From the IMG/VR virus record IMGVR_UViG_2548876955_000010: DNA of 16,048 bases. One strand, given 5' to 3'. The translations under genes were made by a program, and so were the position numbers. Shown piece after piece: positions 1-16,048 of the stretch. The first letter of the stretch is position 1, and each line of letters starts with the position of its first letter. This stretch comes from a virus. Its lineage: Duplodnaviria; Heunggongvirae; Uroviricota; Caudoviricetes. The notes beneath the pieces were generated by a model. That model was not told the origin of the DNA. It saw nothing but the letters and a program-made list of their open reading frames with translations, and did not search any database.

Positions 1-1
1 A

Positions 2-1282
2 TTAATTTTTCATTGCTTCGTTATGGGGCATGGTTGGGGCAAACTCGCTTAACTGTGTATTTAACAAAGCTACCTGTGCATTATTGTTTTCAGACATCCA
101 TTTTCCGTATACCTGAAATACCATTTGCGCATCTGCATGGCCCATCTGGTTTGCTATAAATGCCGGGTTAGCACCAGCTGTCAGCGACCAGCAGGCATAA
201 GTATGTCTCGACTGATATGATTTTCGATGGCGGAGTCCGGCACGTTTTATCGCTGCGTCCCACATCTGCCTTATTGAGTCAACGGTAAAATGGTCACCAT
301 AATTTTTTACTCTCGCTGACACTTCAGGTTGAAAAACAAAGGTGCATTTTTGTTTTTCTGTTCTGCCATACTCTCTGAGGTGAACATCAATGATATGCTC
401 TTTGCTCAGTCTCGTTAATGTCATCTGACTCCGGAGAGCGTCGATTGCTGGCTTAATAAGATGAATGACCCGATTGGTTCCCGCCTGTGTTTTTGGTACC
501 GTGAAACGGTCTTTTGCTAAATTTCTCCTGATCATCATTGTTCCATTTTTCAGATCTATGTCCTCCCATCCAAGTGCACACAGCTCACCAGGGCGAACGC
601 CAGTATAAACAGAAACACACCATAAATTTTTTGCTTGCTGATTTCTGCACGCATCGATAAGACGGATAAATTCCTCCCGCGAAAGAGGATCCGGAATGGT
701 TCTTGATTCCTTTAATGGCGAGATCCCCTTAAACGGATTATCTGGCAGGTAACCGTTATCAACACCAAACTGGAACACGGCGTTAAGATTTGTCATGTAA
801 TTATTTACAGTTACAGCCGATCTCCCTGGTTGTGTAACAATATAGTTACTTTTGGGGATCTGGTATCCAGTCAGTAGCTCTTTACGAACCTCCAGTAATT
901 TTTCTTTATTAATCGATGAGGCAAGATTTTTTTCACCGATTATGCTCAGGATATTTTTGATGACGGCACGGTATGTGTTGAGTGATGTTTTGGCGACTTC
1001 AGTTTCTTTCAGTGCCAGAAATTTTTCAGCCAGTTCTTTTATGGTTAAATCTTGTCGGGCCTCACCAAATTTTTCCAGATTGCGTGAGGAGGGAAACTGT
1101 TTTGCATAGTCGAAAACACCAGTTTTTATTGCGTAACAAACAGAGGAGCGTAGTTCACCTGCAACGCGCCTGTTTTTTGCTGTGTCAGGAACCCCCAGAT
1201 TTTCCCTGACTCTTACGCCTTTATAAACAAACCAGATACGTAATTTCCCTCCATGGTTTTCCACGCCTGTCGGATATTTCAT
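2..1282 (-). CDS. int: Phage tyrosine integrase (site-specific recombinase); C-terminus abuts the window edge
   Basis: Long minus-strand ORF (track 2..1297). Translation has integrase-like C-terminal catalytic region (…RHTYACWSLTAGANPAFIANQMGHADAQMVFQVYGKWMSE, conserved R/H/Y context). Start placed at internal ATG 1282 (MKYPTG…); the upstream ATG at 1297 is an alternative. Product assignment from family knowledge, not a search. Confidence 0.88.
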   Translation of the reverse strand: MKYPTGVENHGGKLRIWFVYKGVRVRENLGVPDTAKNRRVAGELRSSVCYAIKTGVFDYAKQFPSSRNLEKFGEARQDLTIKELAEKFLALKETEVAKTSLNTYRAVIKNILSIIGEKNLASSINKEKLLEVRKELLTGYQIPKSNYIVTQPGRSAVTVNNYMTNLNAVFQFGVDNGYLPDNPFKGISPLKESRTIPDPLSREEFIRLIDACRNQQAKNLWCVSVYTGVRPGELCALGWEDIDLKNGTMMIRRNLAKDRFTVPKTQAGTNRVIHLIKPAIDALRSQMTLTRLSKEHIIDVHLREYGRTEKQKCTFVFQPEVSARVKNYGDHFTVDSIRQMWDAAIKRAGLRHRKSYQSRHTYACWSLTAGANPAFIANQMGHADAQMVFQVYGKWMSENNNAQVALLNTQLSEFAPTMPHNEAMKN

Positions 1283-1316
1283 TTCAACTTCTCTCATTAG
1301 TTAGTGTGGCTTTTAG

Positions 1317-1568
1317 TCAAGTAAGATGACGTCTTGGTCTCGCTGATGCCTGGCGCTCAATCCAGCGATCAATTTCTTCCAGGTTGTAAAAGCATGGACT
1401 GTTATCCCATGGCATACCGTCATGAGCGACATGCTTATATTCCCTTCCTTCCATAAACGATTTTTCCCGGGCCTTTTTTAACGTACCTTTTTTTATTCCT
1501 TTCAGCGCAATTAACTGCTCTTCGGATACCCATTTGCCGGGAGAGACAATCATGATTACTTCGCTCAT
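1317..1568 (-). CDS. Small excisionase-like / recombination directionality protein (putative)
   Basis: 83-aa basic ORF immediately upstream of and co-oriented with int, the classic xis-int arrangement. No specific motif recognised; function inferred from position and size. Confidence 0.6.
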   Translation of the reverse strand: MSEVIMIVSPGKWVSEEQLIALKGIKKGTLKKAREKSFMEGREYKHVAHDGMPWDNSPCFYNLEEIDRWIERQASARPRRHLT

Positions 1569-1640
1569 CGATTTCTTTATCTCTTACATCAGACGAGCGC
1601 CGGTTGCAGAATACCAGTCACAACCGGCGACAGTTGAACA

Positions 1641-4112
1641 TTAAGAATCAGCCTGACTCGGGATCAGTTTTTGCCAGATAACTGAAACGTATTTTGCCTG
1701 GTAACGGGCGTCATCAAGTGCATTATGGCGCTCACCTTCGAATGGAATAGCCGTTCTGGCATCGAAGTCTATGGCTTTCCCCAGCTCAACGATTGTGCGT
1801 ACATCGCGATCGTTGTAGTAACGCCACGGGCAGGGGATCCCCTGCCGTTCGTATGAACGGCGCAAAATCGTGTTGTCGAAGTTGGCTCCATTTCCCCAGA
1901 CCTGAACAAAAAATTCACCGGAGTTTTCGTCGATAAATTCCCGCAATTGTAACAGTGCATCATCTAACGGGATTTCATCGGTCATAATGGCAGATTGCGC
2001 TTCGCGTGATTGCTTAAGCCACCATTTAATGGTGTCCCGATCAATGACTCCGCCAGCAGTTTCCAGATCGATAGTCTTACTAAATTCCGGTCCCATATCT
2101 CCGGTTTGCGGATCGAAAAATATTGCACCTATTGAGATGATCGGGGCATCAGGATTTTTTCCCATGGTTTCAAGGTCGATCATTAGATGGTCACACGTCC
2201 TGCTGGTGGATGTGATTTCGTGATGACCGTTCACCTTAATTGAGTGATCTGCCGTCTCGCCAGTTTCATTATCGCTATCGTGATGCTGATTGCCGCCAGT
2301 GTTCTCCTTGTGTGGATGTTCAGCGCCTTCCATTTCCTTCGGATCATCTTCCTGAACTTCAACCTGATACTCTTCATCGAATGTTTCCTGGTATGTTGCG
2401 TCGCCCATCACCGCGCCACAATCAGGGCAGTTGCCGCCGCCGGTCTGACCGCAGGCGGTGCAGACTTTTTCCACTTCCTGTTGCGCCACTGGTTCAGGCT
2501 GTTTCGTTTCTGGCTCGTTTTGTAACGCATTTGGGCTGTTTTGTTCCGCTTTTTGGTAGTTCCGTTCCGATTCATGCTGGTTCTGGTTCACAGAATCGCG
2601 GGTCTGGATCCCCTTAACCCATTTCGGATCATTCGGGTCACTAATCCCTTCAACAAATTCACCACGTGATGCAGCAAGCAACTTATCGGCGTCAGGCTGG
2701 CTGATATTGGCTGCCTGCATAATTTTGTTTACTTCGTCAGCGGTAACTTTTATCGGTTCTGGTTGTTCTGAATCTTCAGCGGTATCTACATTTTGCGGTA
2801 AGCCCGTGTATGTGCCATTTTTTCGGGCAAAATATTCTTCTTTAGTGATTTCAGTGGCGCCAGCAGCCAGTGCCTTATCCAGACCAGAAAGTTTGTTTGC
2901 GCGACCGTATTTTTCTCCGTCCTTATCTGCGAAGAGGAAATAGAACGGCCCCTCACGCTCTACAGATGGTTCAGCTTCCGGCGCGGTTTCATTTTTTGGG
3001 ATATCAGATACCTCAGTTTCCACTGCATCAGTTTGTGTTTCTGATGACTGGAGAACATCAACAGTGCCCAGGTCTGTTTCTTCATTCTCAAACACGCCCT
3101 TTGTCGTCAGGTATTCGCAGATATATTTGTTCAGTGCTACGGGTTCTTTGTGAATGTCGATCGGACGCTCACGGACAAGGCCAAAAATAGTTTGGCGGTC
3201 GTAGCGAAGGGCATCAGGCTGTTTGCGCATTGATGCCGAGATACGCTTCCAGTCTTCGCGGTCGTTGTCGATAACTTCTTTTTTTGCCCAGCGATGGATG
3301 CTGCCGTCAATGTTTCCGGCATCCACATCACCAGGCCAGAGAGCGTAGGCCAGTTCGTCATCCAGTGTTTTCCATGTCTGCTTGTATTCGCGATGAATGG
3401 CAGCAATGACCGGGCTGATTTTTCCTGTTGAATTTTCAGTGTACTGTTGATTGGCTCTGGTGCGGGCGAGATCAACAACAGACGTGTATTTTCCGGTTCC
3501 CTTGCGTTCACCTTCGCGACGTTTTTTCCAGATGCGCATCTCTGCCTGAATTTCGGGCCATTTAGCACCAGGAATACATTTATGCTTAACCCACCCAATG
3601 GCGTGCAACTTAAGCTCCGGATACATGGCGTTAACTTCTGGCATTTTCATCAACGCTTCAACGATATGTCCGTCGAATGTTGCCATGTCTTCCTGCAACA
3701 ATTCCTGTGCGCTAATAACCATATCAACGGTGATGTTTTCACATGTGTCGAACTTAACCATGACAGCGTTCTGTACTTCAGGGGCCAGCTTGTCAAAAGT
3801 GACGTTCATCGGATCGGATTCAGTCTCAACCGGGACAAAAGAAGCAGACTCCTCATCCCAGCGGTTTTCCTGCATATATTCAGCATCCCATGAATCGAGG
3901 GCAGGGCGGGGTATGCCAGGTTTATCCTCGCAGACAATAAATTTATAAGCGCAGTCCTGAGCAGCCGGATAATGTTCCAGGAATTGCCAGTGAAATTTTG
4001 CTCGAGCACGGCGTTCGTCGCCAGCTTCAATGGCTGTGGCTACAGCCACAGCGCCTTCTTCCCTTGTTGCCAGTTCGTCAGGAATAGCGGCGCAAATAAA
4101 GACTTTACTCAT
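1641..4112 (-). CDS. Exodeoxyribonuclease VIII-like protein (RecE/YdfE family), intact 823 aa, with C-terminal DnaQ-like DEDDh exonuclease-like region
   Basis: 823-aa ORF with GAGG RBS about 8 nt before ATG 4112. C-terminal part has MIDLETMG…H…ALDDAR-type acidic motifs typical of DEDD 3'-5' exonucleases. Cys cluster VCTACGQTGGGNCPDCG (C-x2-C-x8-C-x2-C). N-terminus resembles what I recall of the truncated K-12 Qin ydfE product. Confidence 0.85.
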   Translation of the reverse strand: MSKVFICAAIPDELATREEGAVAVATAIEAGDERRARAKFHWQFLEHYPAAQDCAYKFIVCEDKPGIPRPALDSWDAEYMQENRWDEESASFVPVETESDPMNVTFDKLAPEVQNAVMVKFDTCENITVDMVISAQELLQEDMATFDGHIVEALMKMPEVNAMYPELKLHAIGWVKHKCIPGAKWPEIQAEMRIWKKRREGERKGTGKYTSVVDLARTRANQQYTENSTGKISPVIAAIHREYKQTWKTLDDELAYALWPGDVDAGNIDGSIHRWAKKEVIDNDREDWKRISASMRKQPDALRYDRQTIFGLVRERPIDIHKEPVALNKYICEYLTTKGVFENEETDLGTVDVLQSSETQTDAVETEVSDIPKNETAPEAEPSVEREGPFYFLFADKDGEKYGRANKLSGLDKALAAGATEITKEEYFARKNGTYTGLPQNVDTAEDSEQPEPIKVTADEVNKIMQAANISQPDADKLLAASRGEFVEGISDPNDPKWVKGIQTRDSVNQNQHESERNYQKAEQNSPNALQNEPETKQPEPVAQQEVEKVCTACGQTGGGNCPDCGAVMGDATYQETFDEEYQVEVQEDDPKEMEGAEHPHKENTGGNQHHDSDNETGETADHSIKVNGHHEITSTSRTCDHLMIDLETMGKNPDAPIISIGAIFFDPQTGDMGPEFSKTIDLETAGGVIDRDTIKWWLKQSREAQSAIMTDEIPLDDALLQLREFIDENSGEFFVQVWGNGANFDNTILRRSYERQGIPCPWRYYNDRDVRTIVELGKAIDFDARTAIPFEGERHNALDDARYQAKYVSVIWQKLIPSQADS

Positions 4113-4205
4113 TTTGTTTTAACCTCATGACAGATTTAAGGATGAACAAATCCCTGCCATTGCTGGCATATAAGAATGAAACCGGATATTTATTACGGAA
4201 CTGTT

Positions 4206-4397
4206 TTAAAGACCTGCCGGGATTTCGATATTATCCTGGTGAATAACTTTATCGACCGGGTAACAGTTACCGGGAATTTTCTGTTCGGTTGCTGCAGTCA
4301 TACACTCCTGCATTGTCCTGTGAACACTGACTGCAATATCAACTGGCACTCCGGAAACAAGAAAAACTGTCAGAACAAGCGCAAATGCTGAATTCAT
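4206..4397 (-). CDS. ydfD: YdfD-like small lysis protein with N-terminal hydrophobic segment (63 aa)
   Basis: Start ATG 4397 overlaps the dicB stop in an ATGA junction (translational coupling). AAGGA RBS. Hydrophobic N-terminus MNSAFALVLTVFLVSGVP. Size and position match Qin ydfD. Confidence 0.75.
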   Translation of the reverse strand: MNSAFALVLTVFLVSGVPVDIAVSVHRTMQECMTAATEQKIPGNCYPVDKVIHQDNIEIPAGL

Positions 4398-4582
4398 TGT
4401 GCACATCCTTTTGGCATCAGACGTAAACGAGCCAGCATTGAAACAATGCATATTTTATTTAATAGCTCCCGTTCTTGTTTTCTCTTGTTAATGGCATCTT
4501 CAGTAAATACAGGGTTACTGATAGTGACACCAATTTCAAAACAACCTTCAGACGTATTAACGTTTGGTAATAACGTTTTCAT
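4394..4582 (-). CDS. dicB: Cell division inhibitor DicB (62 aa; MinC-dependent division inhibitor)
   Basis: Translation MKTLLPNVNTSEGCFEIGVTISNPVFTEDAINKRKQERELLNKICIVSMLARLRLMPKGCAQ, 62 aa. GAGGA RBS 8 nt upstream. Lies immediately downstream of DicF, as in the Qin dicB operon. Confidence 0.88.
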   Translation of the reverse strand: MKTLLPNVNTSEGCFEIGVTISNPVFTEDAINKRKQERELLNKICIVSMLARLRLMPKGCAQ

Positions 4583-4751
4583 TATCGCGTCCTCAACAAT
4601 GAATTTTGTGATGCAGTGCCTGGTGCCTCCAGGTGACGTTAACCAGTTAACAATTAACGTCGGATACAGAGAATCCACCCATAACACTGTTTTTGGTTTT
4701 AACTGTTCCGCGTGCGCTTAGCCGCATTCACCGCATCACAAAATTCACTTT

Positions 4752-4809
4752 AAAAACGGCGGCAGAGCAGTCACGGAGTAAAACTGATACCGCCAAACGT
4801 CACCAGAAA
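4752..4809 (-). ncRNA. dicF: DicF small regulatory RNA (ftsZ-targeting sRNA of the dicB operon)
   Basis: Minus-strand sequence TTTCTGGTGACGTTTGGCGGTATCAGTTTTACTCCGTGACTGCTCTGCCGCCGTTTTT matches the DicF sequence as I recall it, including the GGCGG/CCGCC stem and 3' U-tract. Ends are approximate. Confidence 0.85.
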
Positions 4810-5068
4810 ATTGATAACAGAGGGCGTTGCAGCGGGGTTGTCACTTAAGCGTATGGTCAACCTGACAACCCGGTGTCATCAACGGGGAAGGAATAACCCC
4901 GCCATACTTACCGCCGCGCCATTTTGCGGGTTGCCACAACCGGAAGCGCACGGTCGAATTAAATTTAACGACACCGTACAGTGAGACGAACTTCGCCGTG
5001 CGCTTTCGTGTTGTGTGCCTGCTTTTAACCACGTCAGGCGAGGTGGTATCCTTAAAATCACCACAGTT

Positions 5069-5644
5069 TTAAGGATTCATTAAGCAATGTCGCAACCACC
5101 AATAAATCCGCTTAAGAACATGAAAATTGATTACTGGTATAAAGCGCTTACAGTTGTTGGCGCTGCGTTGTTTGTCTTTAATGGAACGTCTTTTTTTGAC
5201 AGATATCCCGTTGTTCCATTGGGTTTTTTGTCCTCCGGCATCTTTTTTATTGGTTTGGGGGAGTGGATTAATCACCCTCTCAAAGTGAGATTTATTGGTC
5301 CTGGAGTTTGGACTCGTGGATATAATCGTTCTTCGTGCGCACTCGGTATCATCTTCGACATACTTGGTTGTTTCCTGATTGTTACAGGAGTCGTCAAGTT
5401 CTTCTGATGTAAAACCGCAAATGGGGCACGTAACGGGAATTTTGAAAAGCGTTTCTCCGGGTTCCAGAACAAAATTTTCTGCGGTCTGATTTTGCTTCTC
5501 ATATTTGTGCTCCGCGTCATTGTGAGAGCACATTCTTATTCTGAGTGCCTGTTTAAACTCACTGAAGCTGAGAGCTTCTTCGCCTTCGGCAAGGCCTTCG
5601 AAGTATTCTTCGTAAGCCTTTTCCATGATTGTGTCGAAATCCAT
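5069..5644 (-). CDS. YdfB/YdfC-like protein (fused reading frame; C-terminal extent uncertain)
   Basis: Start ATG 5644 lies 2 nt after the ydfA-like stop. N-terminus MDFDTIMEKAYEEYFEGLAEGEEALSFSEFKQAL…HNDAEHKYEKQNQTAENFVLEPGETLFKIPVTCPICGF resembles YdfB followed by YdfC as one continuous frame. The distal about 65 aa are low-complexity K/R/N-rich and overlap a plus-strand membrane ORF, so the true 3' end is uncertain. Confidence 0.6.
   Translation of the reverse strand: MDFDTIMEKAYEEYFEGLAEGEEALSFSEFKQALRIRMCSHNDAEHKYEKQNQTAENFVLEPGETLFKIPVTCPICGFTSEELDDSCNNQETTKYVEDDTECARRTIISTSPNSRTNKSHFERVINPLPQTNKKDAGGQKTQWNNGISVKKRRSIKDKQRSANNCKRFIPVINFHVLKRIYWWLRHCLMNP
5087..5407 (+). CDS. Alternative call: hypothetical small membrane protein (about 3 predicted TM segments), antisense to the ydfB/C-like tail
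   Basis: 106-aa ORF with three hydrophobic stretches (ALTVVGAALFVF; LGFLSSGIFFIGLGEWI; ALGIIFDILGCFLIVTGVV). AAGGA about 12 nt upstream of the ATG. Conflicts with the minus-strand ORF; only one of the two is likely translated over this span. Confidence 0.3.
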   Translation: MSQPPINPLKNMKIDYWYKALTVVGAALFVFNGTSFFDRYPVVPLGFLSSGIFFIGLGEWINHPLKVRFIGPGVWTRGYNRSSCALGIIFDILGCFLIVTGVVKFF

Positions 5645-5645
5645 A

Positions 5646-5801
5646 TCACTCACCTGAGTTTCTTTCCAGCCAGCGACGGGCACCATTTTCGGTTTTAAAC
5701 GTTTTGCTTTTGGTATACGTCATCGCGGTGAACGTGCCGTCCTGGTTGGGGAACACGCCACATACCAGAGATTCGCTGTTGCCAAGATCGATAGTATCCA
5801 T
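5646..5801 (-). CDS. ydfA: YdfA-like small protein (51 aa)
   Basis: Internal ATG 5801 with GAGG 8 nt upstream. Translation MDTIDLGNSESLVCGVFPNQDGTFTAMTYTKSKTFKTENGARRWLERNSGE. First gene of the leftward operon downstream of the dicA-like repressor. Confidence 0.78.
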   Translation of the reverse strand: MDTIDLGNSESLVCGVFPNQDGTFTAMTYTKSKTFKTENGARRWLERNSGE

Positions 5802-5882
5802 GCTGACCTCATTTCCCCTTAACGCCGGGGTAGCGGAACTGTTTGCTGAGAACACCGTGCGGTGTCTTGATGGAGGTAATTT

Positions 5883-5936
5883 AGTTTTCTCATTATTTTT
5901 CGTCAAGGTTTTTTGATGAGAAAACTCAAGTATTGG
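5883..5936. promoter_or_regulatory. Putative DicA operator copies / leftward dicB-operon promoter region
   Basis: Palindromic element TGAGAAAACTCA at 5917..5928, within a 19-mer GAGAAAACTCAAGTATTGG (5918..5936) nearly repeated at 6454..6471. An inverted partial copy AGTTTTCTCAT at 5883..5893. Located between the dicA-like stop and the ydfA-like start. Confidence 0.5.
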
Positions 5937-5993
5937 CGCAAGATAAAGCCAATACATTGAAATGTAAGGCTTTAAAATTTTGTGAAGGGATGA

Positions 5994-6401
5994 TTATTGA
6001 TGCTTGTTGCGTTTGCGAGCCTCTAATAGCTCGGTGAACAGGCGATTAAAATTCTCAACGCGGGCGCGGAGTTCGCTGAGTTGTGCTTGTTGCTCTGATT
6101 TAGGAAGTGCGCGATACAAACGCAGCATCTCTAACTCATCTTCCGATAAGTCTAAGGCACTATCGAGTGAAACAGGGGGAGCTGGTGTTTTGTCCTCGTC
6201 GCCAAACAGTATCCAGGTTGGTGAACATTGCAATACCTCGGCGAGGCGATGCAAATTTTGCCCGCGCGGGGCTGTATGGTCACTTTCCCATAATGAAATT
6301 GATGAGCCAGATACGCCAGCAGCTTTGCTTAAACCGTTTTGACTTAAGCCTACCTGCTTACGTCTTTCTCTAATGCGTTGACCTAAAGTTTTCTCGTTCA
6401 T
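5994..6401 (-). CDS. dicA: DicA-like XRE-family HTH repressor (135 aa), prophage immunity repressor analogue
   Basis: Start at internal ATG 6401 (MNEKTLGQRIRERRKQVGLSQNGLSKAAGVS… HTH motif). Conserved …VLQCSPTWILFGDEDK… segment characteristic of DicA as I recall it. Divergent from the Cro-like gene. Confidence 0.85.
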   Translation of the reverse strand: MNEKTLGQRIRERRKQVGLSQNGLSKAAGVSGSSISLWESDHTAPRGQNLHRLAEVLQCSPTWILFGDEDKTPAPPVSLDSALDLSEDELEMLRLYRALPKSEQQAQLSELRARVENFNRLFTELLEARKRNKHQ

Positions 6402-6478
6402 ATTTAGATATCTTAATAACCCTTGACTTGAGATTCCTTGAGTGATTAGCATTGAGAAAACTCAATATTGGAGGTGCG
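6402..6478. promoter_or_regulatory. Divergent dicA/dicC promoter-operator region with perfect palindrome ATTGAGAAAACTCAAT
   Basis: 77-bp intergenic region. 16-bp perfect palindrome at 6451..6466. TTGACT -35-like hexamer at 6423..6428 with TAGCAT -10-like about 18 bp downstream. GGAGGT SD at 6470..6475 for dicC. Confidence 0.6.
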
Positions 6479-6706
6479 ATGTTTAAATCAGACGTAATTA
6501 ATTTTTACGGTACGAAAGCCAAAGTAGCGAAAGCTGCTGGCGTTGACCCATCTGCTGTTTCTCAATGGCAAGAGCTGGTTCCTGAAGGTCGCGCGATGCG
6601 TCTACAGGAGGCATCTGGCGGCGAGCTTCTGTATGATCCCAAGGTTTATGACGAATATCGTAAGACGAAGCGGGCGGGGCGGTTGAACAATGAAAATCAC
6701 TCCTGA
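6479..6706 (+). CDS. dicC: DicC-like Cro-type regulator (75 aa)
   Basis: ATG 6479 with GGAGGT RBS. Translation MFKSDVINFYGTKAKVAKAAGVDPSAVSQWQELVPEGRAMRLQEASGGELLYDPKVYDEYRKTKRAGRLNNENHS; the C-terminal half matches what I recall of DicC. The track ORF starts upstream at 6452 but lacks an RBS there. Confidence 0.85.
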   Translation: MFKSDVINFYGTKAKVAKAAGVDPSAVSQWQELVPEGRAMRLQEASGGELLYDPKVYDEYRKTKRAGRLNNENHS

Positions 6707-7211
6707 ACAGGCTCGTGAGGCTCTGGATGCCTGGATATGTCGACCAGGAATGACACAGGAGCAGGCGACGATATTAATCACTGAAGCATTCTGGGCTTTG
6801 AAAGAGCGCCCGAACATCGATGTTCAGCGTGTCACATATGAAGGTGGCGCGGTTGATCAGCGAGCGCTTAGCGTTAATCGAGTGAAGATATTCGAACGCT
6901 GGAAGGCTATCGACACCAGGGATAAGCGTGAAAAGTTCACAGCGCTAGTGCCTGCAATTATGGAGGCTATCCGGATTAGTGATTTCAGGTTGTATCGTGA
7001 GATCAGTGATGGAAAAAGTATTACGTACATGATCGCCGGGTTAAATAAAGAATATGGCGATGTGGTGGAATCCGGACTGCTTTTTGCAGATCCTGCCGTT
7101 GTAGATCGTGAAACTGACGAACTTATAGAAAAAGCAATTGCTTTCAAGCTTGCGTATCGACAGCAATACCAACAAAAAGCTGGATGGAATTATGAGTCTT
7201 CTTTTTGCTGA
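6690..7211 (+). CDS. CII-like / YdaT-family regulator (putative)
   Basis: 173-aa ORF overlapping the dicC stop by 17 nt, in the position where lambdoid phages carry cII. Family assignment is by position and size only; no diagnostic motif confirmed. Confidence 0.65.
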   Translation: MKITPEQAREALDAWICRPGMTQEQATILITEAFWALKERPNIDVQRVTYEGGAVDQRALSVNRVKIFERWKAIDTRDKREKFTALVPAIMEAIRISDFRLYREISDGKSITYMIAGLNKEYGDVVESGLLFADPAVVDRETDELIEKAIAFKLAYRQQYQQKAGWNYESSFC

Positions 7212-8157
7212 ACGCCCACTGGTTATAAACACGCAGCTGGCAATGAAAATCGGCTTAAACGAAGCCATTGTTTTGCAACAACTGCACTACTGGTTGAGAG
7301 ATACCAACTCCGGTATGGAATGTGATGGTGTTCGCTGGATTTATAACACAACGGAACAATGGCTGGAACAGTTCCCATTCTGGTCAGAGTCAACGTTAAA
7401 GCGCGCGTTTGCAAGTCTGAAAACGCTGGGGCTTTTGCGTTGTGAAAAGCTCAATAAATCAAAGCGCGATATGACCAATTTCTACACGATCAACTATGGG
7501 AGCGAGCTTTTAGATGGTGGCAAATTGAACGAATCCATCGGTTCAAAATGCGCCGCTCCATCAGGTCAAAATGACACGATGGAAGAGGTCAAAATGAAAC
7601 GCTCCATTGGTTCAAAACGACCCAATGTCATCGGGTCAAAATGGCCTGATGATCTTACAGAGAATACAACAGAGATTACTACAGAGAATAAAAACACTTT
7701 TCGTCCGGAAGCTTCGCAACCGGACCCGCAGACGACTGAACAGGATTTTTTAACCCGGAACCCCGACGCGGTTGTGTTTAGTGTGAAAAAACGCCAGTGG
7801 GGTAGCAGGGAGGATTTGGCGTGTGCGCAGTGGATTTGGGGGCGGATCGTGAACCTTTACGAACAGGCTGCCAGCGACGATGGAGAGATCATGCGACCAA
7901 AAGAGCCTAACTGGACAGCCTGGGCCAATGACGTGCGCACAATGCGGATGCTGGATGGCAGAAGCCACAGACAAATTTGCGAAATGTTTGGTCGGGTACA
8001 GCGGGATCCATTCTGGGTAAAAAACATCATGAGCCCGTCAAAACTCCGCGAAAAATGGGACGAACTGGTCATCCGCCTGGGACGTTCACCTGTACAGCGT
8101 TGTGTGAATCATATTTCTGAACCGGATACAGAAATTCCGCCTGGTTTCAGGGGATAA
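7192..8157 (+). CDS. Phage replication initiation protein (replisome organizer) with DnaT-like C-terminal domain
   Basis: ATG 7192 (MSLLFAERPLVINTQLAMKIGLNEAIVLQQLHYWL…). C-terminus …VNHISEPDTEIPPGFRG closely resembles the C-terminal end of primosomal protein DnaT (…SEPDSQIPPGFRG, from memory). Contains an internal iteron array (see repeat feature). Confidence 0.85.
   Translation: MSLLFAERPLVINTQLAMKIGLNEAIVLQQLHYWLRDTNSGMECDGVRWIYNTTEQWLEQFPFWSESTLKRAFASLKTLGLLRCEKLNKSKRDMTNFYTINYGSELLDGGKLNESIGSKCAAPSGQNDTMEEVKMKRSIGSKRPNVIGSKWPDDLTENTTEITTENKNTFRPEASQPDPQTTEQDFLTRNPDAVVFSVKKRQWGSREDLACAQWIWGRIVNLYEQAASDDGEIMRPKEPNWTAWANDVRTMRMLDGRSHRQICEMFGRVQRDPFWVKNIMSPSKLREKWDELVIRLGRSPVQRCVNHISEPDTEIPPGFRG
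7539..7643. repeat. Iteron-like direct repeats (5 copies of GG(T)TCAAAA(T/C)G, about 23-24 bp spacing) inside the replication gene; candidate phage origin
   Basis: Copies start at about 7540, 7564, 7587, 7609 and 7634, encoding the repeated IGSK/GQN peptide motif. Followed by an A-rich stretch with repeated ACAGAGAATA (about 7660..7700). Analogous to ori-lambda iterons inside the O gene. Confidence 0.6.
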
Positions 8158-8197
8158 GTGTTGATTTCAGGTCATGAGGTAATTTTAAGGGGGACTT

Positions 8198-8620
8198 GTG
8201 GCAAAAGTTTTTACACAAGAAGAGCGGGAAAAAATTAAAGGGCAGGTTGTTGAACTCGTGCGCCGGAGTGGGCGTGAGACGTTACGGCAACTGGAAGTCA
8301 AGACAGGTGCGACAAGATATCTGATGAGCGTTCTCGCAAGAGAGCTGGTTGCCAGCGGCGATGTATACAACTCCGGCTACGGGTTATTCCCCTCTGAACA
8401 GGCGCGTAAGGACTGGCAAAACGCCCGCAAAAAACTCTCGAGGGCAAAGGTGAAGAAACCTGCTGTGGTTGATCCGGACCTTATCTGGTCATTACCTGAC
8501 GGAGAAATACGTCGCTACGACAGGCGTCATAATTTAATTTGTAGTGAGTGCCGTAAGAGCGAAGTTATGCAGCGCATATTATCGTTTTATCAGGGAAATG
8601 TTCGGTATTTATTTAAGTGA
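8198..8620 (+). CDS. Hypothetical protein (140 aa), last gene of the replication-module operon
   Basis: GTG start at 8198 preceded by AAGGGGGA RBS. Basic protein with no motif I can assign. Confidence 0.65.
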   Translation: MAKVFTQEEREKIKGQVVELVRRSGRETLRQLEVKTGATRYLMSVLARELVASGDVYNSGYGLFPSEQARKDWQNARKKLSRAKVKKPAVVDPDLIWSLPDGEIRRYDRRHNLICSECRKSEVMQRILSFYQGNVRYLFK

Positions 8621-8898: not shown

Positions 8899-11496
8899 AT
8901 GACACCTATAGAAAAAATCGCAAATTGGTCTAAAAATAAACCTGTCTGGTGGCGGCACTCGCTACGTCTTGCATTAAATAATGGAACATTGGAGCAAGAC
9001 GATTTCAATGAAATATTTAAGTTAGCTTGCATGGAGCATGGTTTGTTGGAGAAAAACGCACATTTTTCTGAATGTGAAAAACCGATAGATTTTACTGGCT
9101 ATGCTGCTGAACTACATGAGGTATCATTAAAATCAATTTATGACGTAAAAGGCGTTGGGATACTGGCAGAAAACCAAAAGCTCAATTTTTCTAACAATGG
9201 CCTGTTTATCGTTTATGGTGATAATGGCGCCGGAAAATCAAGCTATGCAAGCATTTTAAAAAATGCATGCTTAACCCGAGGGGATAGCCCTGCAATTATT
9301 GGGAATGTCTTTTCCAAACTGAACTTACCTCCTCAAGCAAAACTCGCTGTTTCATGTAATGGTGTGGATGAAATTCATTCATGGAATCAACAAGTATCAA
9401 GCATTGAATCATTAAAGTCTATTCGTATATTTGACAGTTCATCTGCAAGCCATTACGTAAACAAAGAAGATGCTCTGGGTTTTAAACCTGTTGGACTAAA
9501 TTTACTTACTGAGTTGGTTCGTGCCATCGGAAGTGTTAATGCTTTTATTAATGAAGATACTATGCCCGGAAATGGTCTTACTACATTGATGAAGCTACAG
9601 TCAGGCAGCGTTACCGCTAGCTTTGCCAACAATCTTTCGGCAAATACTTTTGAAGGAGACGTCGATAATCATATTGCTACTGAAGCTGACTTACAACGAA
9701 TAGAAAGTTTGAGAAGAGAAATAAATCAATACAAGTCCCAGACGGCTGAAACGATAAAAAGTGCGTTGGAACAGAATAAGAGAACCCTTTCTCCACTTAA
9801 AAGTTTTTGTGATAGTTCAATTAAATTATTAGGTAATAATGCTGTTTTAGAACTAACAAAGCTACAGGCCGAACAAGAACGAACACAACATGTTTCTGAA
9901 GAACTACGTAAAGCTACATTACAAAATCTACCTTTAGATACAGTTGCAGGTCTTAGCTGGCAGAATTTATGGAAAGCAGCTAAAAACTTTATTGAACAGG
10001 AAACACGAAAGCAAAATTTCCCGATGCAAAAAGGAGAGCCTTGCCCGCTTTGTTTGCAAGAGATTGGCTTGGAAAGTGAAAGCAGATTGGCTGCATTAGC
10101 ACAGTATTTAAGTGACGAAACGGCGCAGTCAGCAAAAATCGCAAAGTACAATGTTGATAATGCATTAAAATTATTGTCCTCACATTCTCTCGAGCTAACC
10201 CCTTACATTGCAGCTATTGAATTTCTTAATGATAAGCACCCACCTCTGGGTGATGACGTCAAAATGATGTTTGCGCTCCTAGCGGAAAGAAAGGGAAATA
10301 TGTTATTAGGTAATGTTGAAGATACACATGCTGCATTGAATACTGAATGTGTAAATCAGTTTAATAAAATCATTGAGGGTCTCGATCAAAGTATACTCAG
10401 TGTTAATTCGGATGCGGATTTTTTGCTGTTAATAAAAAGGGAAGAGATGGAGTTAGCACGACTGGAAGATATGAAATATGTGTTGGATAATAAATCCAAT
10501 ATTATTTCTAACATCAGGCGTCTCAAAATTATTAAAAAATTTGAAAATTTGCAGTCACAATGCGGAACAACATCAATTTCAACTTTGTCTTCTCAGATAA
10601 GTCGTTCTGGTGTTGTTGAGCCGTTGATTTCAGCATTTAGCGAGGAACTGCGTAATTTTGGTTTTGAACGCTTCAAAGTGAAAGTTGATACCCGAAATCG
10701 TTCTGGTGAGCAGCAGTTTAAATTATCATTGGCTGATGAAGATGATGTGACTATTGCTACACTCGGAGTTGCAAGTGAGGGGGAACAACGATGTATTGCT
10801 ATTGCCAGTTTCCTTGCCGAAATGAAGGCTGATGCAAGAAAGTCGGCCGTTATATTTGATGATCCAGTTAACTCATTAAGTCATGAGTGGAGCAGCCGGG
10901 TTGCAAGACGCCTAGCCTTAGAATCGAAAAATAGACAGGTTATTGTCTTAACTCATAATATAGTTTTTTACAAACTACTGCTGGAAGTCGCTGAAGAGAT
11001 AAATGCAGAATGCTCCTGTATTGCTCTTGAACGCTCCCGTAAACTTGCAGGCTTAGTCAGGGAGTCAGCCCCTTGGGAAGCAATGACTACGCGAAGCAGA
11101 TACAAAGAACTTAAAGTTAAACTACAAGAGCTTAAACGATTAGATAAAAGGGATGAGACAACAGTTGCTGAGTTTCGTTTGGCATCTTGTCAGTTTTACG
11201 GATTTCTACGCGAGGCTTGGGAAAGGCTTGTTGAAGAGAAGCTTCTTAATAAAGTAGTGACTCGTTTTGAAAGAGGCATCTCTACTCAGCGATTAGCTCG
11301 ATTAAAAGATATCAATCAGGATGATCTTGATAAGATTGATCGTGGAATGTCTAAATGTAGCACTTATTTTAGAGGGCATGATAGCGCGCCTGCTGTCGGT
11401 GATCCTTATCCAATGATTGCTGAAATAGAGCAGGATTTAGATGCGATTAACATATTCTTAACCGAGCTTGAGAGCCCTTCCAGAAAAAGAAATTAA
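8899..11496 (+). CDS. Large P-loop ATPase (ABC/AAA_13-like) with coiled-coil CxxC insertion and distinct C-terminal domain; candidate RloC/PrrC-like abortive-infection / anticodon-nuclease protein
   Basis: 865-aa ORF with AAGGA RBS 6 nt before ATG 8899. Walker A GDNGAGKS (nt 9217..9240). Walker B-like AVIFDDP (nt 10846..10866) followed by VLTHN. More than 500 aa between the two motifs, K/E/Q-rich with CPLC (nt 10042..10053). C-terminal about 170 aa contain LREAWE and YFRGHDS. Gene and flanks are visibly AT-rich relative to neighbouring prophage genes. Function is inference. Confidence 0.85.
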   Translation: MTPIEKIANWSKNKPVWWRHSLRLALNNGTLEQDDFNEIFKLACMEHGLLEKNAHFSECEKPIDFTGYAAELHEVSLKSIYDVKGVGILAENQKLNFSNNGLFIVYGDNGAGKSSYASILKNACLTRGDSPAIIGNVFSKLNLPPQAKLAVSCNGVDEIHSWNQQVSSIESLKSIRIFDSSSASHYVNKEDALGFKPVGLNLLTELVRAIGSVNAFINEDTMPGNGLTTLMKLQSGSVTASFANNLSANTFEGDVDNHIATEADLQRIESLRREINQYKSQTAETIKSALEQNKRTLSPLKSFCDSSIKLLGNNAVLELTKLQAEQERTQHVSEELRKATLQNLPLDTVAGLSWQNLWKAAKNFIEQETRKQNFPMQKGEPCPLCLQEIGLESESRLAALAQYLSDETAQSAKIAKYNVDNALKLLSSHSLELTPYIAAIEFLNDKHPPLGDDVKMMFALLAERKGNMLLGNVEDTHAALNTECVNQFNKIIEGLDQSILSVNSDADFLLLIKREEMELARLEDMKYVLDNKSNIISNIRRLKIIKKFENLQSQCGTTSISTLSSQISRSGVVEPLISAFSEELRNFGFERFKVKVDTRNRSGEQQFKLSLADEDDVTIATLGVASEGEQRCIAIASFLAEMKADARKSAVIFDDPVNSLSHEWSSRVARRLALESKNRQVIVLTHNIVFYKLLLEVAEEINAECSCIALERSRKLAGLVRESAPWEAMTTRSRYKELKVKLQELKRLDKRDETTVAEFRLASCQFYGFLREAWERLVEEKLLNKVVTRFERGISTQRLARLKDINQDDLDKIDRGMSKCSTYFRGHDSAPAVGDPYPMIAEIEQDLDAINIFLTELESPSRKRN

Positions 11497-11901: not shown

Positions 11902-12055
11902 TTTCATATTGGCGAGGTAAAGGTAGTTAAGTAGAATGGCTGCGGGTGCTTGAGGCTATCTGCCTCGGGCATGAACACCAAAGGCAGATAGAGAAAAGCC
12001 CCAGTTAACATTACGCGTCCTGCAAGACGCTTAATATTAATCTGAGGCCAATTTC

Positions 12056-12268
12056 ATGCTAGACACATGTAGGTTAGCCTCTTACGTGCCGGAAGGCAAG
12101 GAGAAGCAGGCTATGAAGCAGCAAAAGGCGATGTTAATCGCCCTGATCGTCATCTGTTTAACCGTCATAGTGACGGCACTGGTAACGAGGAAAGACCTCT
12201 GCGAGGTACGAATCCGAACCGGCCAGACGGAGGTCGCTGTCTTCACAGCTTACGAACCTGAGGAGTAA
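12056..12268 (+). CDS. Mok-like overlapping frame (N-terminally extended Hok, MokC-type)
   Basis: In-frame upstream ATG at 12056 gives MLDTCRLASYVPEGKEKQA + Hok; this resembles the MokC/HokC arrangement. Confidence 0.45.
   Translation: MLDTCRLASYVPEGKEKQAMKQQKAMLIALIVICLTVIVTALVTRKDLCEVRIRTGQTEVAVFTAYEPEE
12113..12268 (+). CDS. hok: Hok/Gef-family type I toxin (51 aa membrane peptide)
   Basis: MKQQKAMLIALIVICLTVIVTALVTRKDLCEVRIRTGQTEVAVFTAYEPEE carries the Hok/Gef signature (LIVIC…LVTRKDLCEV…GQTEVA…AYE). Which hok paralogue it is cannot be resolved. Confidence 0.88.
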   Translation: MKQQKAMLIALIVICLTVIVTALVTRKDLCEVRIRTGQTEVAVFTAYEPEE

Positions 12269-12484: not shown

Positions 12485-12736
12485 ATGATGAACATCGAAG
12501 AACTGCGTAAAATTTTTTGTGAAGATGGCCTCTATGCTGTGTGCGTTGAAAATGGAAATCTTGTTAGTCATTACCGCATTATGTGTTTGCGAAAGAATGG
12601 GGCTGCGTTAATTAATTTTGTGGATGGTCGAGTGACAGACGGATTTATCTTGCGCGAAGGTGAGTTTGTCACTTCATTACAGGCACTGAAAGAGATCGGA
12701 ATAAAAGCAGGCTTTTCAGCTTTTGCAGAAGAATAA
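12485..12736 (+). CDS. rem: Rem-like hypothetical protein (83 aa)
   Basis: 83-aa ORF with AAGGA RBS. Position between hok and ydfU-like and length match Qin rem; the sequence itself is not independently recognised. Confidence 0.65.
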   Translation: MMNIEELRKIFCEDGLYAVCVENGNLVSHYRIMCLRKNGAALINFVDGRVTDGFILREGEFVTSLQALKEIGIKAGFSAFAEE

Positions 12737-15319: not shown

Positions 15320-15532
15320 TCATGAAAGGTAAACATTGGCAGCTGAAGGGCCACGCAGACCATTTATCCGGCAAAATTCCACGCGTAATCCGGTGGTAAT
15401 TTCTTCTGCATCGCGGAGATTGAGCGCTGAAACATGAAGCTGGACATCGATACGACCATCGGATGGGGTGATAAGACCCTTGCCGCTTTTGCCGTCAAAG
15501 GTTTTGACAATTCCTGTCATTTTACGGGACAA
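15320..15532 (-). CDS. cspF: Cold-shock protein CspF-like (70 aa)
   Basis: [70 protein letters not shown]; cold-shock domain fold signature. Confidence 0.88.
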
Positions 15533-15832
15533 AAAAATTCCTTAATACTGATAACTTGGCGCACTATACACACGTTCCTGAAGAAAGCTATAGTTTTTTG
15601 ATGGGGTTGAAGATGGCTGGATGTCTAAAATAAACATTGCTTCATATGTTCAACTATGCGTTAATGATTGCGTCGGTTTGAAGAACAGACGATATACGAA
15701 GTAGTTTACTAAAGCAGTTCTCATTTCAGGTGTTATTCACTTATTCCTTCTTTGAGTCTCTCCAATTAAGTACGAAGTCGTTTCTGTTATGCAAACCATT
15801 TATGCCGAAAGGCTCAAGTTAAGGAATGTAGA

Positions 15833-16048
15833 ATGTCAAATAAAATGACTGGTTTAGTAAAATGGTTTAACGCTGATAAAGGTTTCGGCTTTATTTCTCC
15901 TGTTGATGGTAGTAAAGATGTGTTTGTGCATTTTTCTGCGATTCAGAATGATAATTATCGAACCTTATTTGAAGGTCAAAAGGTTACCTTCTCTATAGAG
16001 AGTGGTGCTAAAGGTCCTGCAGCAGCAAATGTCATCATTACTGATTAA
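15833..16048 (+). CDS. cspB: Cold-shock protein CspB-like (71 aa)
   Basis: [71 protein letters not shown] with RNP1-like KGFGFI and RNP2-like VFVHF motifs. Long 5' leader (about 300 nt) typical of csp genes. Stop TAA at 16046..16048. Confidence 0.9.

Follow-up and report, generated by a model that had tools for sequence, protein, structure and literature searches.

A probably functional dicF-dicB-ydfD cassette in the predicted early-left operon of a Qin-type lambdoid prophage of Escherichia coli

Does a copy of the division-inhibition and lysis cassette dicF-dicB-ydfD belong to a working operon when the prophage genes around it appear intact? The question is raised by positions 4206 to 4809 of a 16,048-nucleotide stretch of DNA from a virus of the Caudoviricetes (IMG/VR record IMGVR_UViG_2548876955_000010; the whole stretch is called the window below). 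A preliminary description, made from the letters of the window and a list of its open reading frames, had placed the sRNA (small RNA) DicF, the 62-amino acid DicB and a 63-amino acid YdfD-like protein on the minus strand of this segment, and had suggested from the apparently intact int, xis and exonuclease genes that their regulation may be functional rather than cryptic. Based on comparison with known sequences, we consider it very likely that positions 4206 to 4809 are the dicF-dicB-ydfD part of the dicBF operon in an E. coli lambdoid prophage of the Qin/mEp460/HannyBb type that lies beside rspB. The cassette is real and probably functional in this prophage. Its genes are already known: they are well-studied toxic genes of prophages, with alleles common in E. 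coli and in isolated phages.

The DicF RNA and the dicB and ydfD genes

To characterize the cassette, the minus strand of positions 4190 to 5030 was aligned to the annotated locus of K-12 MG1655, the whole window was scanned against Rfam, and the predicted proteins were compared with Pfam and NCBIfam. All three products were recovered on the minus strand, and the limits of the segment proved exact to the base, with the ydfD stop codon ending at 4206 and DicF beginning at 4809. The parts of the cassette are as follows.

4757 to 4809, minus strand: DicF sRNA, 53 nt (Rfam RF00039 and alignment to K-12 dicF, b1574)
4583 to 4756, minus strand: DicF-dicB spacer, the 5′ leader of dicB (three substitutions relative to K-12)
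4394 to 4582, minus strand: dicB, cell-division inhibitor, 62 amino acids (K-12 identity, Pfam and NCBIfam)
4206 to 4397, minus strand: ydfD, lysis protein, 63 amino acids (K-12 identity and Pfam DUF1482)

The Rfam match to DicF (RF00039; 4808 to 4757, minus strand) spans model positions 1 to 52 of 52 and, with 72.5 bits and an E value of 1.2e-14, exceeds the gathering score of 48 set for the family. At the nucleotide level, 52 of the 53 positions are those of K-12 dicF, the sole change being C53G at the final nucleotide, 3′ of the terminator stem. Nucleotides 1 to 52 are therefore those of K-12, and the target-pairing sequence is intact; the disruptive seed mutation for which the alignment was inspected was not found. 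The terminator stem and U-tail reported earlier were seen in the fold, as a stem at 4794 to 4758 followed by U5, with a predicted energy of −16.6 kcal/mol.

Could C53G, lying beside the terminator, nevertheless make this copy of DicF defective? It is the only departure from K-12 DicF, and the pairing with ftsZ, which has been shown experimentally, maps together with that of pykA to the 3′ part of the RNA, while xylR pairs with the 5′ end (PMC5069750). We regard a defect of this kind as very improbable. When the duplex with the K-12 ftsZ leader (−29 to +25) was predicted, the window allele and the K-12 allele gave the same structure and nearly the same energy (−38.9 vs −38.5 kcal/mol), and nucleotide 53 was unpaired. 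The stem and the U-tract are intact. Moreover, 889 complete-genome records of E. coli contain the exact 70-nt sequence with G53, and the isolated phages Tritos and HannyBb carry G53 as well.

The DicB protein is identical to K-12 DicB at all 62 amino acids, its gene having one synonymous change. It matches both Pfam PF05358 (1.9e-40; 136.8 bits vs a cutoff of 27) and NCBIfam NF049927 (132.8 bits vs a cutoff of 100). Given its identity to the K-12 protein studied in PMC6832061, this DicB would bind MinC and inhibit division. That DicF targets ftsZ and that DicB acts with MinC, as stated in the preliminary description, agrees with the published work (PMC5069750 and PMC6832061, respectively).

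YdfD shares 61 of its 63 amino acids with the K-12 protein, from which it differs by V6A and E17V, and matches Pfam DUF1482 (PF07358) over its full length (2.2e-25; 88.7 bits vs a cutoff of 25). Both cysteines, C32 and C45, are kept, and the A6/V17 allele is also that of phage HannyBb. The stop codon of dicB and the start codon of ydfD overlap as caATGAat, exactly as in K-12; the overlap noticed earlier is thus present, and the translational coupling it suggests is predicted. Two plus-strand open reading frames antisense to ydfD and dicB (4176 to 4391 and 4446 to 4721) were dismissed as mechanical and unsupported.

The spacer that leads into dicB carries the Shine-Dalgarno sequence GAGGA, 8 nt ahead of the ATG. 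When extended into the first 33 nt of dicB (4550 to 4759, minus strand), it gave a full-length match to the Rfam family STnc100 (RF02076) at 33.5 bits and an E value of about 1e-5. We rejected membership of this family, the score being below its gathering score of 47. A conserved hairpin, CACCUGGAGGCACCAGGCAC, is common to the dicB leader and STnc100. STnc100 is probably the homologous dicB leader, registered as an sRNA candidate in other Gammaproteobacteria.

The cassette is widespread, its sequence matching DNA in 4742 of the 5426 complete E. coli genomes searched; the median copy number is two. Such wide retention was described in 2016 (PMC5069750).

The operon, its promoter and the segment ahead of DicF

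In transcriptional order, the operon runs from a DicA-type repressor and its operators through dicBp, ydfA, a truncated ydfB, a variable segment, a presumed RNase III (ribonuclease III) hairpin and DicF with its terminator to dicB, ydfD, the exonuclease gene exo, the excisionase gene xis and the integrase gene int. By this arrangement, it is the predicted early-left, pL-equivalent (dicBp) operon of a Qin-type lambdoid prophage. The features that govern its expression are the following.

6479 to 6706, plus strand: DicC-type (Cro-like) regulator, 75 amino acids (Pfam P22_Cro, 3.2e-16; 70% identical to K-12 DicC)
6452 to 6465, minus strand: operator TTGAGTTTTCTCAA, a perfect palindrome in the divergent promoter region of dicA and dicC
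5994 to 6401, minus strand: DicA-type (CI-like) repressor, 135 amino acids (NCBIfam DicA subfamily, 239 bits vs a cutoff of 101)
5878 to 5929, minus strand: dicBp region, promoter with two flanking operators at 5916 to 5929 and 5880 to 5893 (promoter scan and motif search)
5906 to 5878, minus strand: dicBp promoter, −35 TTGACG at 5906 to 5901 and −10 TAAATT at 5883 to 5878, with 17-nt spacing (promoter scan)
5646 to 5801, minus strand: ydfA (DUF1391), first gene of the operon (Pfam DUF1391, 8.8e-28)
5026 to 5547, minus strand: variable segment of 520 bp that replaces the 3′ end of K-12 ydfB and ydfC (no K-12 homology)
5087 to 5407, plus strand: small membrane-protein gene, 106 amino acids, antisense to the operon (homologues, motifs and AlphaFold)
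4933 to 5018, minus strand: long hairpin upstream of DicF, presumed RNase III substrate (folds of the window and of K-12)
12485 to 12736, plus strand: rem, whose K-12 counterpart is the antirepressor of DicA (96% identity)

The sigma-70-like dicBp sits at the position of dicBp in K-12. Consensus scans of positions 4000 to 6800 for promoters and terminators were at chance level overall, and only the dicBp hit was used, on the grounds that it matches the K-12 promoter in position and has operators on both sides; we propose no internal promoter for dicB. The operator motif TTGAG-TTTT-CTCAA occurs at three sites with at most two mismatches, compared to 0.33 expected by chance: it is perfect at 6452 to 6465, and the two sites that flank the −35 element of dicBp carry one and two mismatches.

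The repressor is 57% identical to K-12 DicA and represents a different immunity allele. HTH_3 was the only domain detected in it, with neither a RecA-cleavable nor an S24 domain. Its helix-turn-helix part is diverged from K-12, while its middle (LQCSPTWILFGDEDK) and its C-terminus are conserved. Downstream of the promoter, a ydfB-like start comes after ydfA, at 5644, and positions 5872 to 5547 are 97% identical to K-12. Homology to K-12 stops right at the −10 region of dicBp, beyond which the K-12 operator motifs are replaced by the other palindrome. The operators thus appear to have changed together with the repressor allele within a preserved architecture, which has the look of a working immunity module with predicted binding of the repressor to these sites. 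Rem acts as an antirepressor of DicA in K-12 (PMC10448788). Here, a near-identical Rem is paired with a DicA that is 57% identical; if functional, this combination would imply that Rem recognizes a conserved part of the repressor outside its DNA-binding region, across immunity types.

The dicBp transcript is the sole source of DicF in K-12, where no internal promoter was found; RNase III produces a 190-nt species from which RNase E releases the 53-nt DicF (PMC10448788). The hairpin upstream of DicF has the same stem in the folds of the window and of K-12, with a diverged loop, and the inferred 5′ end of the 190-nt precursor (about 4946) falls in its 3′ arm.

To reach DicF, the dicBp transcript must cross the variable segment, which is present in 796 of the 5426 complete E. 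coli genomes and in phage HannyBb. On its opposite strand lies the gene for the 106-amino acid protein, which is absent from the RefSeq annotation. Sixty homologues of about equal length, with identities as low as 34%, come from Yersinia, Herminiimonas, Reinekea and metagenomes, and the motifs DYWYKA and G-GEW-NHP are invariant among them. Its AlphaFold model contains three helices and a β-hairpin at a mean confidence (pLDDT) of 81.6. No match that would indicate its function was found in Pfam, PHROGs, PADLOC or NCBIfam, nor was there a significant structural match in BFVD. On the strength of these homologues, we take the frame to be a real gene, predicted to be transcribed against the dicBF precursor.

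A sense-strand open reading frame of 205 amino acids (5069 to 5686) competes with this gene for the same DNA. It matches phrog_35040 and is called in HannyBb. We treated the part that covers 5087 to 5407 as a shadow of the antisense gene, because the opposite strand has homologues across genera and the 205-amino acid frame has no Pfam or NCBIfam support. The upstream part, outside this overlap, may or may not be coding. A comparison with the 92%-identical copy in strain HH97, intended to assign the coding strand, was uninformative owing to many small indels; the deep protein homologues settled the strand.

The segment is the main uncertainty over the output of DicF and DicB from this operon. 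Convergent transcription or antisense pairing might gate the output of DicF, DicB and YdfD, since double-stranded RNA would be an RNase III substrate; alternatively, the 106-amino acid protein might be an exclusion or defence factor expressed in the lysogen, a thought prompted by the Yersinia prophages, where the homologous gene is likewise beside a repressor and a Cro-like gene. We hold this proposal, in either form, to be doubtful.

In another reading, the cassette would be intact yet effectively silent, the segment with its convergent gene blocking or destabilizing the precursor so that dicF, dicB and ydfD would be hitch-hiking cargo. The 520-bp replacement does hold an antisense gene that appears real, K-12 DicF is made only from the dicBp transcript (PMC10448788), and promoter-like matches near DicF in the window are at chance level (4 found, 4.3 expected, in the scan of 4000 to 6800). 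Nevertheless, the same arrangement is found in 796 complete genomes and in HannyBb with DicF, dicB and ydfD nearly invariant, which argues for continued selection, and the same scan found no terminator-like site on the minus strand of the segment. A silent cassette is therefore improbable in our judgement, and we retain the reading of an operon that probably works.

The prophage, the predicted mechanism and its role

The cassette is followed by three genes that complete the left arm of the prophage.

1641 to 4112, minus strand: exonuclease, 823 amino acids, full length, downstream of ydfD (Pfam Rv2179c-like 3′-5′ exonuclease domain, 2.5e-67)
1317 to 1568, minus strand: excisionase (Pfam DUF1233, putative excisionase, 1.6e-31)
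2 to 1282, minus strand: tyrosine integrase, 426 amino acids, intact (Pfam Arm-DNA-bind_2 and Phage_integrase)

As the preliminary description had judged, int, xis and the exonuclease gene are full length, with the expected Pfam domains, and the exonuclease gene corresponds, without the interruption, to ydfE of K-12, a pseudogene truncated by IS2. Also intact within the window are the immunity region, an O-like gene, a Q antiterminator and rem. The closest genome, NZ_CP148326, is 99.85% identical over 15 kb and shows a divergent Cro-like gene, a DicA-like helix-turn-helix repressor, ydfA, a truncated ydfB, an unannotated gap, dicB, ydfD, the 823-amino acid exonuclease, excisionase, integrase and rspB, in this order. 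Its annotated homologue of the integrase adjoins rspB, and this rspB-adjacent site is that of K-12 Qin. At the same site, the prophage of NZ_CP148326 continues with lysis, terminase, portal, capsid and tail genes. Genes for lysis and structure fall beyond the window, and the evidence for them comes from this nearest genome and from related phages only. The suggestion that the prophage is not cryptic is thus backed by sequence comparison, that is, by the intact int, xis and exonuclease genes, by the terminase-to-tail and lysis genes of the nearest genome, and by a colinearity with HannyBb at 98.7% identity.

With K-12 experiments on near-identical sequences as a guide, the following mechanism can be proposed. 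In the lysogen, the repressor would keep dicBp off. Stress, the antirepressor Rem or a spontaneous DicA/DicC switch could lift this repression, and a polycistronic RNA would then be made; RNase III would cut it in the hairpin (about 4946) to a species of ~190 nt, and RNase E would trim this to the 53-nt DicF ending at its own terminator. Together with Hfq, DicF would pair with the ribosome-binding site of ftsZ and stop FtsZ synthesis, and it may additionally pair with the manX, xylR and pykA mRNAs (PMC5069750, PMC6832061). Transcripts that read through the terminator would allow the translation of DicB and YdfD. DicB would take MinC to the septum, with Z-ring formation blocked as a result, and would also stop phage DNA entry that depends on ManYZ (PMC6832061). 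The ATGA overlap probably couples the translation of ydfD to that of dicB. The lytic action of YdfD has been described to proceed through IspG: by binding IspG, YdfD would cause dividing cells to lyse, an effect that DicB would counteract by halting division (PMC8835842). Early after induction, the cassette would halt host division, much like lambda Kil, while its low or heterogeneous expression would change the metabolism and the phage sensitivity of the lysogen.

The latter effect could be the principal one. According to this alternative, which is compatible with the mechanism above, the cassette mainly serves the lysogen, expression at a low level or in a subpopulation leading to DicB-mediated exclusion of ManYZ-dependent phages and to metabolic tuning by DicF. 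Protection against lambda needs DicB (PMC6832061), DicF accumulates in stationary phase with dicBp on in about 1% of cells (PMC10448788), and the cassette is retained in the defective prophages of most E. coli, at the median of two copies given above. By analogy, however, the cassette is placed like an early lytic gene such as lambda kil (PMC3961180): it is under repressor control in the pL-equivalent operon, with exo, xis and int downstream of it. It is also kept in isolated phages. We therefore see a main role in the lysogen as possible and the less favoured of the two. The earlier statement that both DicF and DicB modulate phage sensitivity stands for DicB, on which lambda resistance depends, and is overstated for DicF, deletion of dicF having had a minimal effect (PMC6832061).

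Several observations weigh against a functional cassette in an inducible prophage. The V6A and E17V changes of YdfD both fall in its N-terminal, IspG-binding half, and intact length has been reported to be necessary for lysis by YdfD (PMC8835842). The segment in place of ydfC, with its convergent gene, could keep some of the transcripts from dicBp from reaching DicF. Rem was tested on K-12 DicA, to which this repressor is just 57% identical. No exact LexA box (CTGT-N8-ACAG) was present upstream of rem or elsewhere in the window, and no other induction signal was found; one-mismatch matches numbered 7 compared to 4.7 expected, and because this is no better than chance, we propose no SOS link. 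The structural half of the prophage is inferred from the 99.85%-identical relative, which matches the right end of the window (15330 to 16048) at just 95%, and every functional step is drawn from homology.

The window copy is of practical use as an undisrupted, natural reference for the left arm of Qin: its exonuclease, xis and int are full length, and its repressor, operators and antirepressor form a coherent set. With it, the role of DicF, DicB and YdfD could be tested in a possibly still inducible phage, the K-12 copy being decayed. Of greater use as leads are the antisense membrane-protein gene, the heteroimmune DicA allele with its K-12-like Rem, and a candidate defence ATPase matching PDC-S06.

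This ATPase belongs to the right part of the window. The Cro-like gene is followed on the plus strand by a YdaT-family gene (6690 to 7211), a 339-amino acid open reading frame that is O-like in the HannyBb annotation (7138 to 8157) and a DUF977 gene (8198 to 8620); no DnaC- or P-like helicase loader was evident in the window. After these replication-type genes comes the 865-amino acid AAA_13/AAA_21 ATPase (8899 to 11496, plus strand), a full-length match to the PADLOC candidate defence system PDC-S06 at 1123 bits. A hok/sok-type module occupies 11944 to 12118 and 12113 to 12268, both on the plus strand (Rfam sok, RF01794, 119 bits; hokD, Pfam HOK_GEF, 1.2e-23). A cspA-type thermoregulator leader (15672 to 16048, plus strand; 157.7 bits) is cut by the window end; after it, a 71-amino acid csp-like frame runs uninterrupted from 15833 to 16048, and cspF of the nearest genome is annotated as frameshifted. 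The last 720 bases of the window match that genome at 95%, in a shifted position.

Comparison with known systems

The closest studied relative is the dicBF operon of K-12 Qin (dicF b1574, dicB b1575, ydfD b1576), which has the same gene order at the same rspB-adjacent site and is 98% identical in DNA over positions 5026 to 3346 of the window, including the same ATGA overlap, presumed RNase III hairpin and terminator. It differs in that ydfE and intQ are IS2-disrupted pseudogenes, whereas the exonuclease and int of the window are full length; in having ydfC and the 3′ end of ydfB where the window has the other 520-bp segment; and in its DicA allele, to which that of the window is 57% identical, and its operators. 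Qin also carries relBE, flxA and ydfV in place of the replication-type genes and the PDC-S06 ATPase.

The cassette is also found at full length, with 96.5 to 99.8% identity, in the isolated temperate phages HannyBb (PP925841), Tritos (OV696610), PhiR42_1 and mEp460_ev081 (LR597641), whereas the window is an integrated prophage. HannyBb is colinear with the window and 98.7% identical over positions 1 to 8605, including the immunity region and the ydfC-replacing segment; past 8605, after DUF977, other genes are annotated where the window carries the PDC-S06 ATPase. In Tritos, DicF is explicitly annotated, and the phage has a K-12-like ydfABC and another immunity region. The presence of dicB, dicF, dicAC and rem in the functional temperate phage mEp460_ev081 was pointed out in 2023 (PMC10448788).

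Lambda Kil (PMC3961180) and KilR of Rac are functional analogues, being small toxic products of a repressor-controlled, pL-type operon that block the FtsZ ring after induction. They have no sequence relationship to the cassette, and no membership is claimed. The routes also differ: Kil acts on FtsZ and depends on ZipA for this, DicB acts via MinC and ZipA, and DicF is not a protein but an antisense RNA. A further analogy, taken from PMC8835842, is with protein E of phiX174, which acts on MraY; like YdfD, whose target is IspG, it is a small lysis protein that hits precursor supply. The two differ in target and in family (DUF1482 for YdfD), and ydfD is a gene of an early operon. YdfD is not the main lysis system of its phage, since the phage also has a lysis cassette of holin, endolysin and Rz-like genes.

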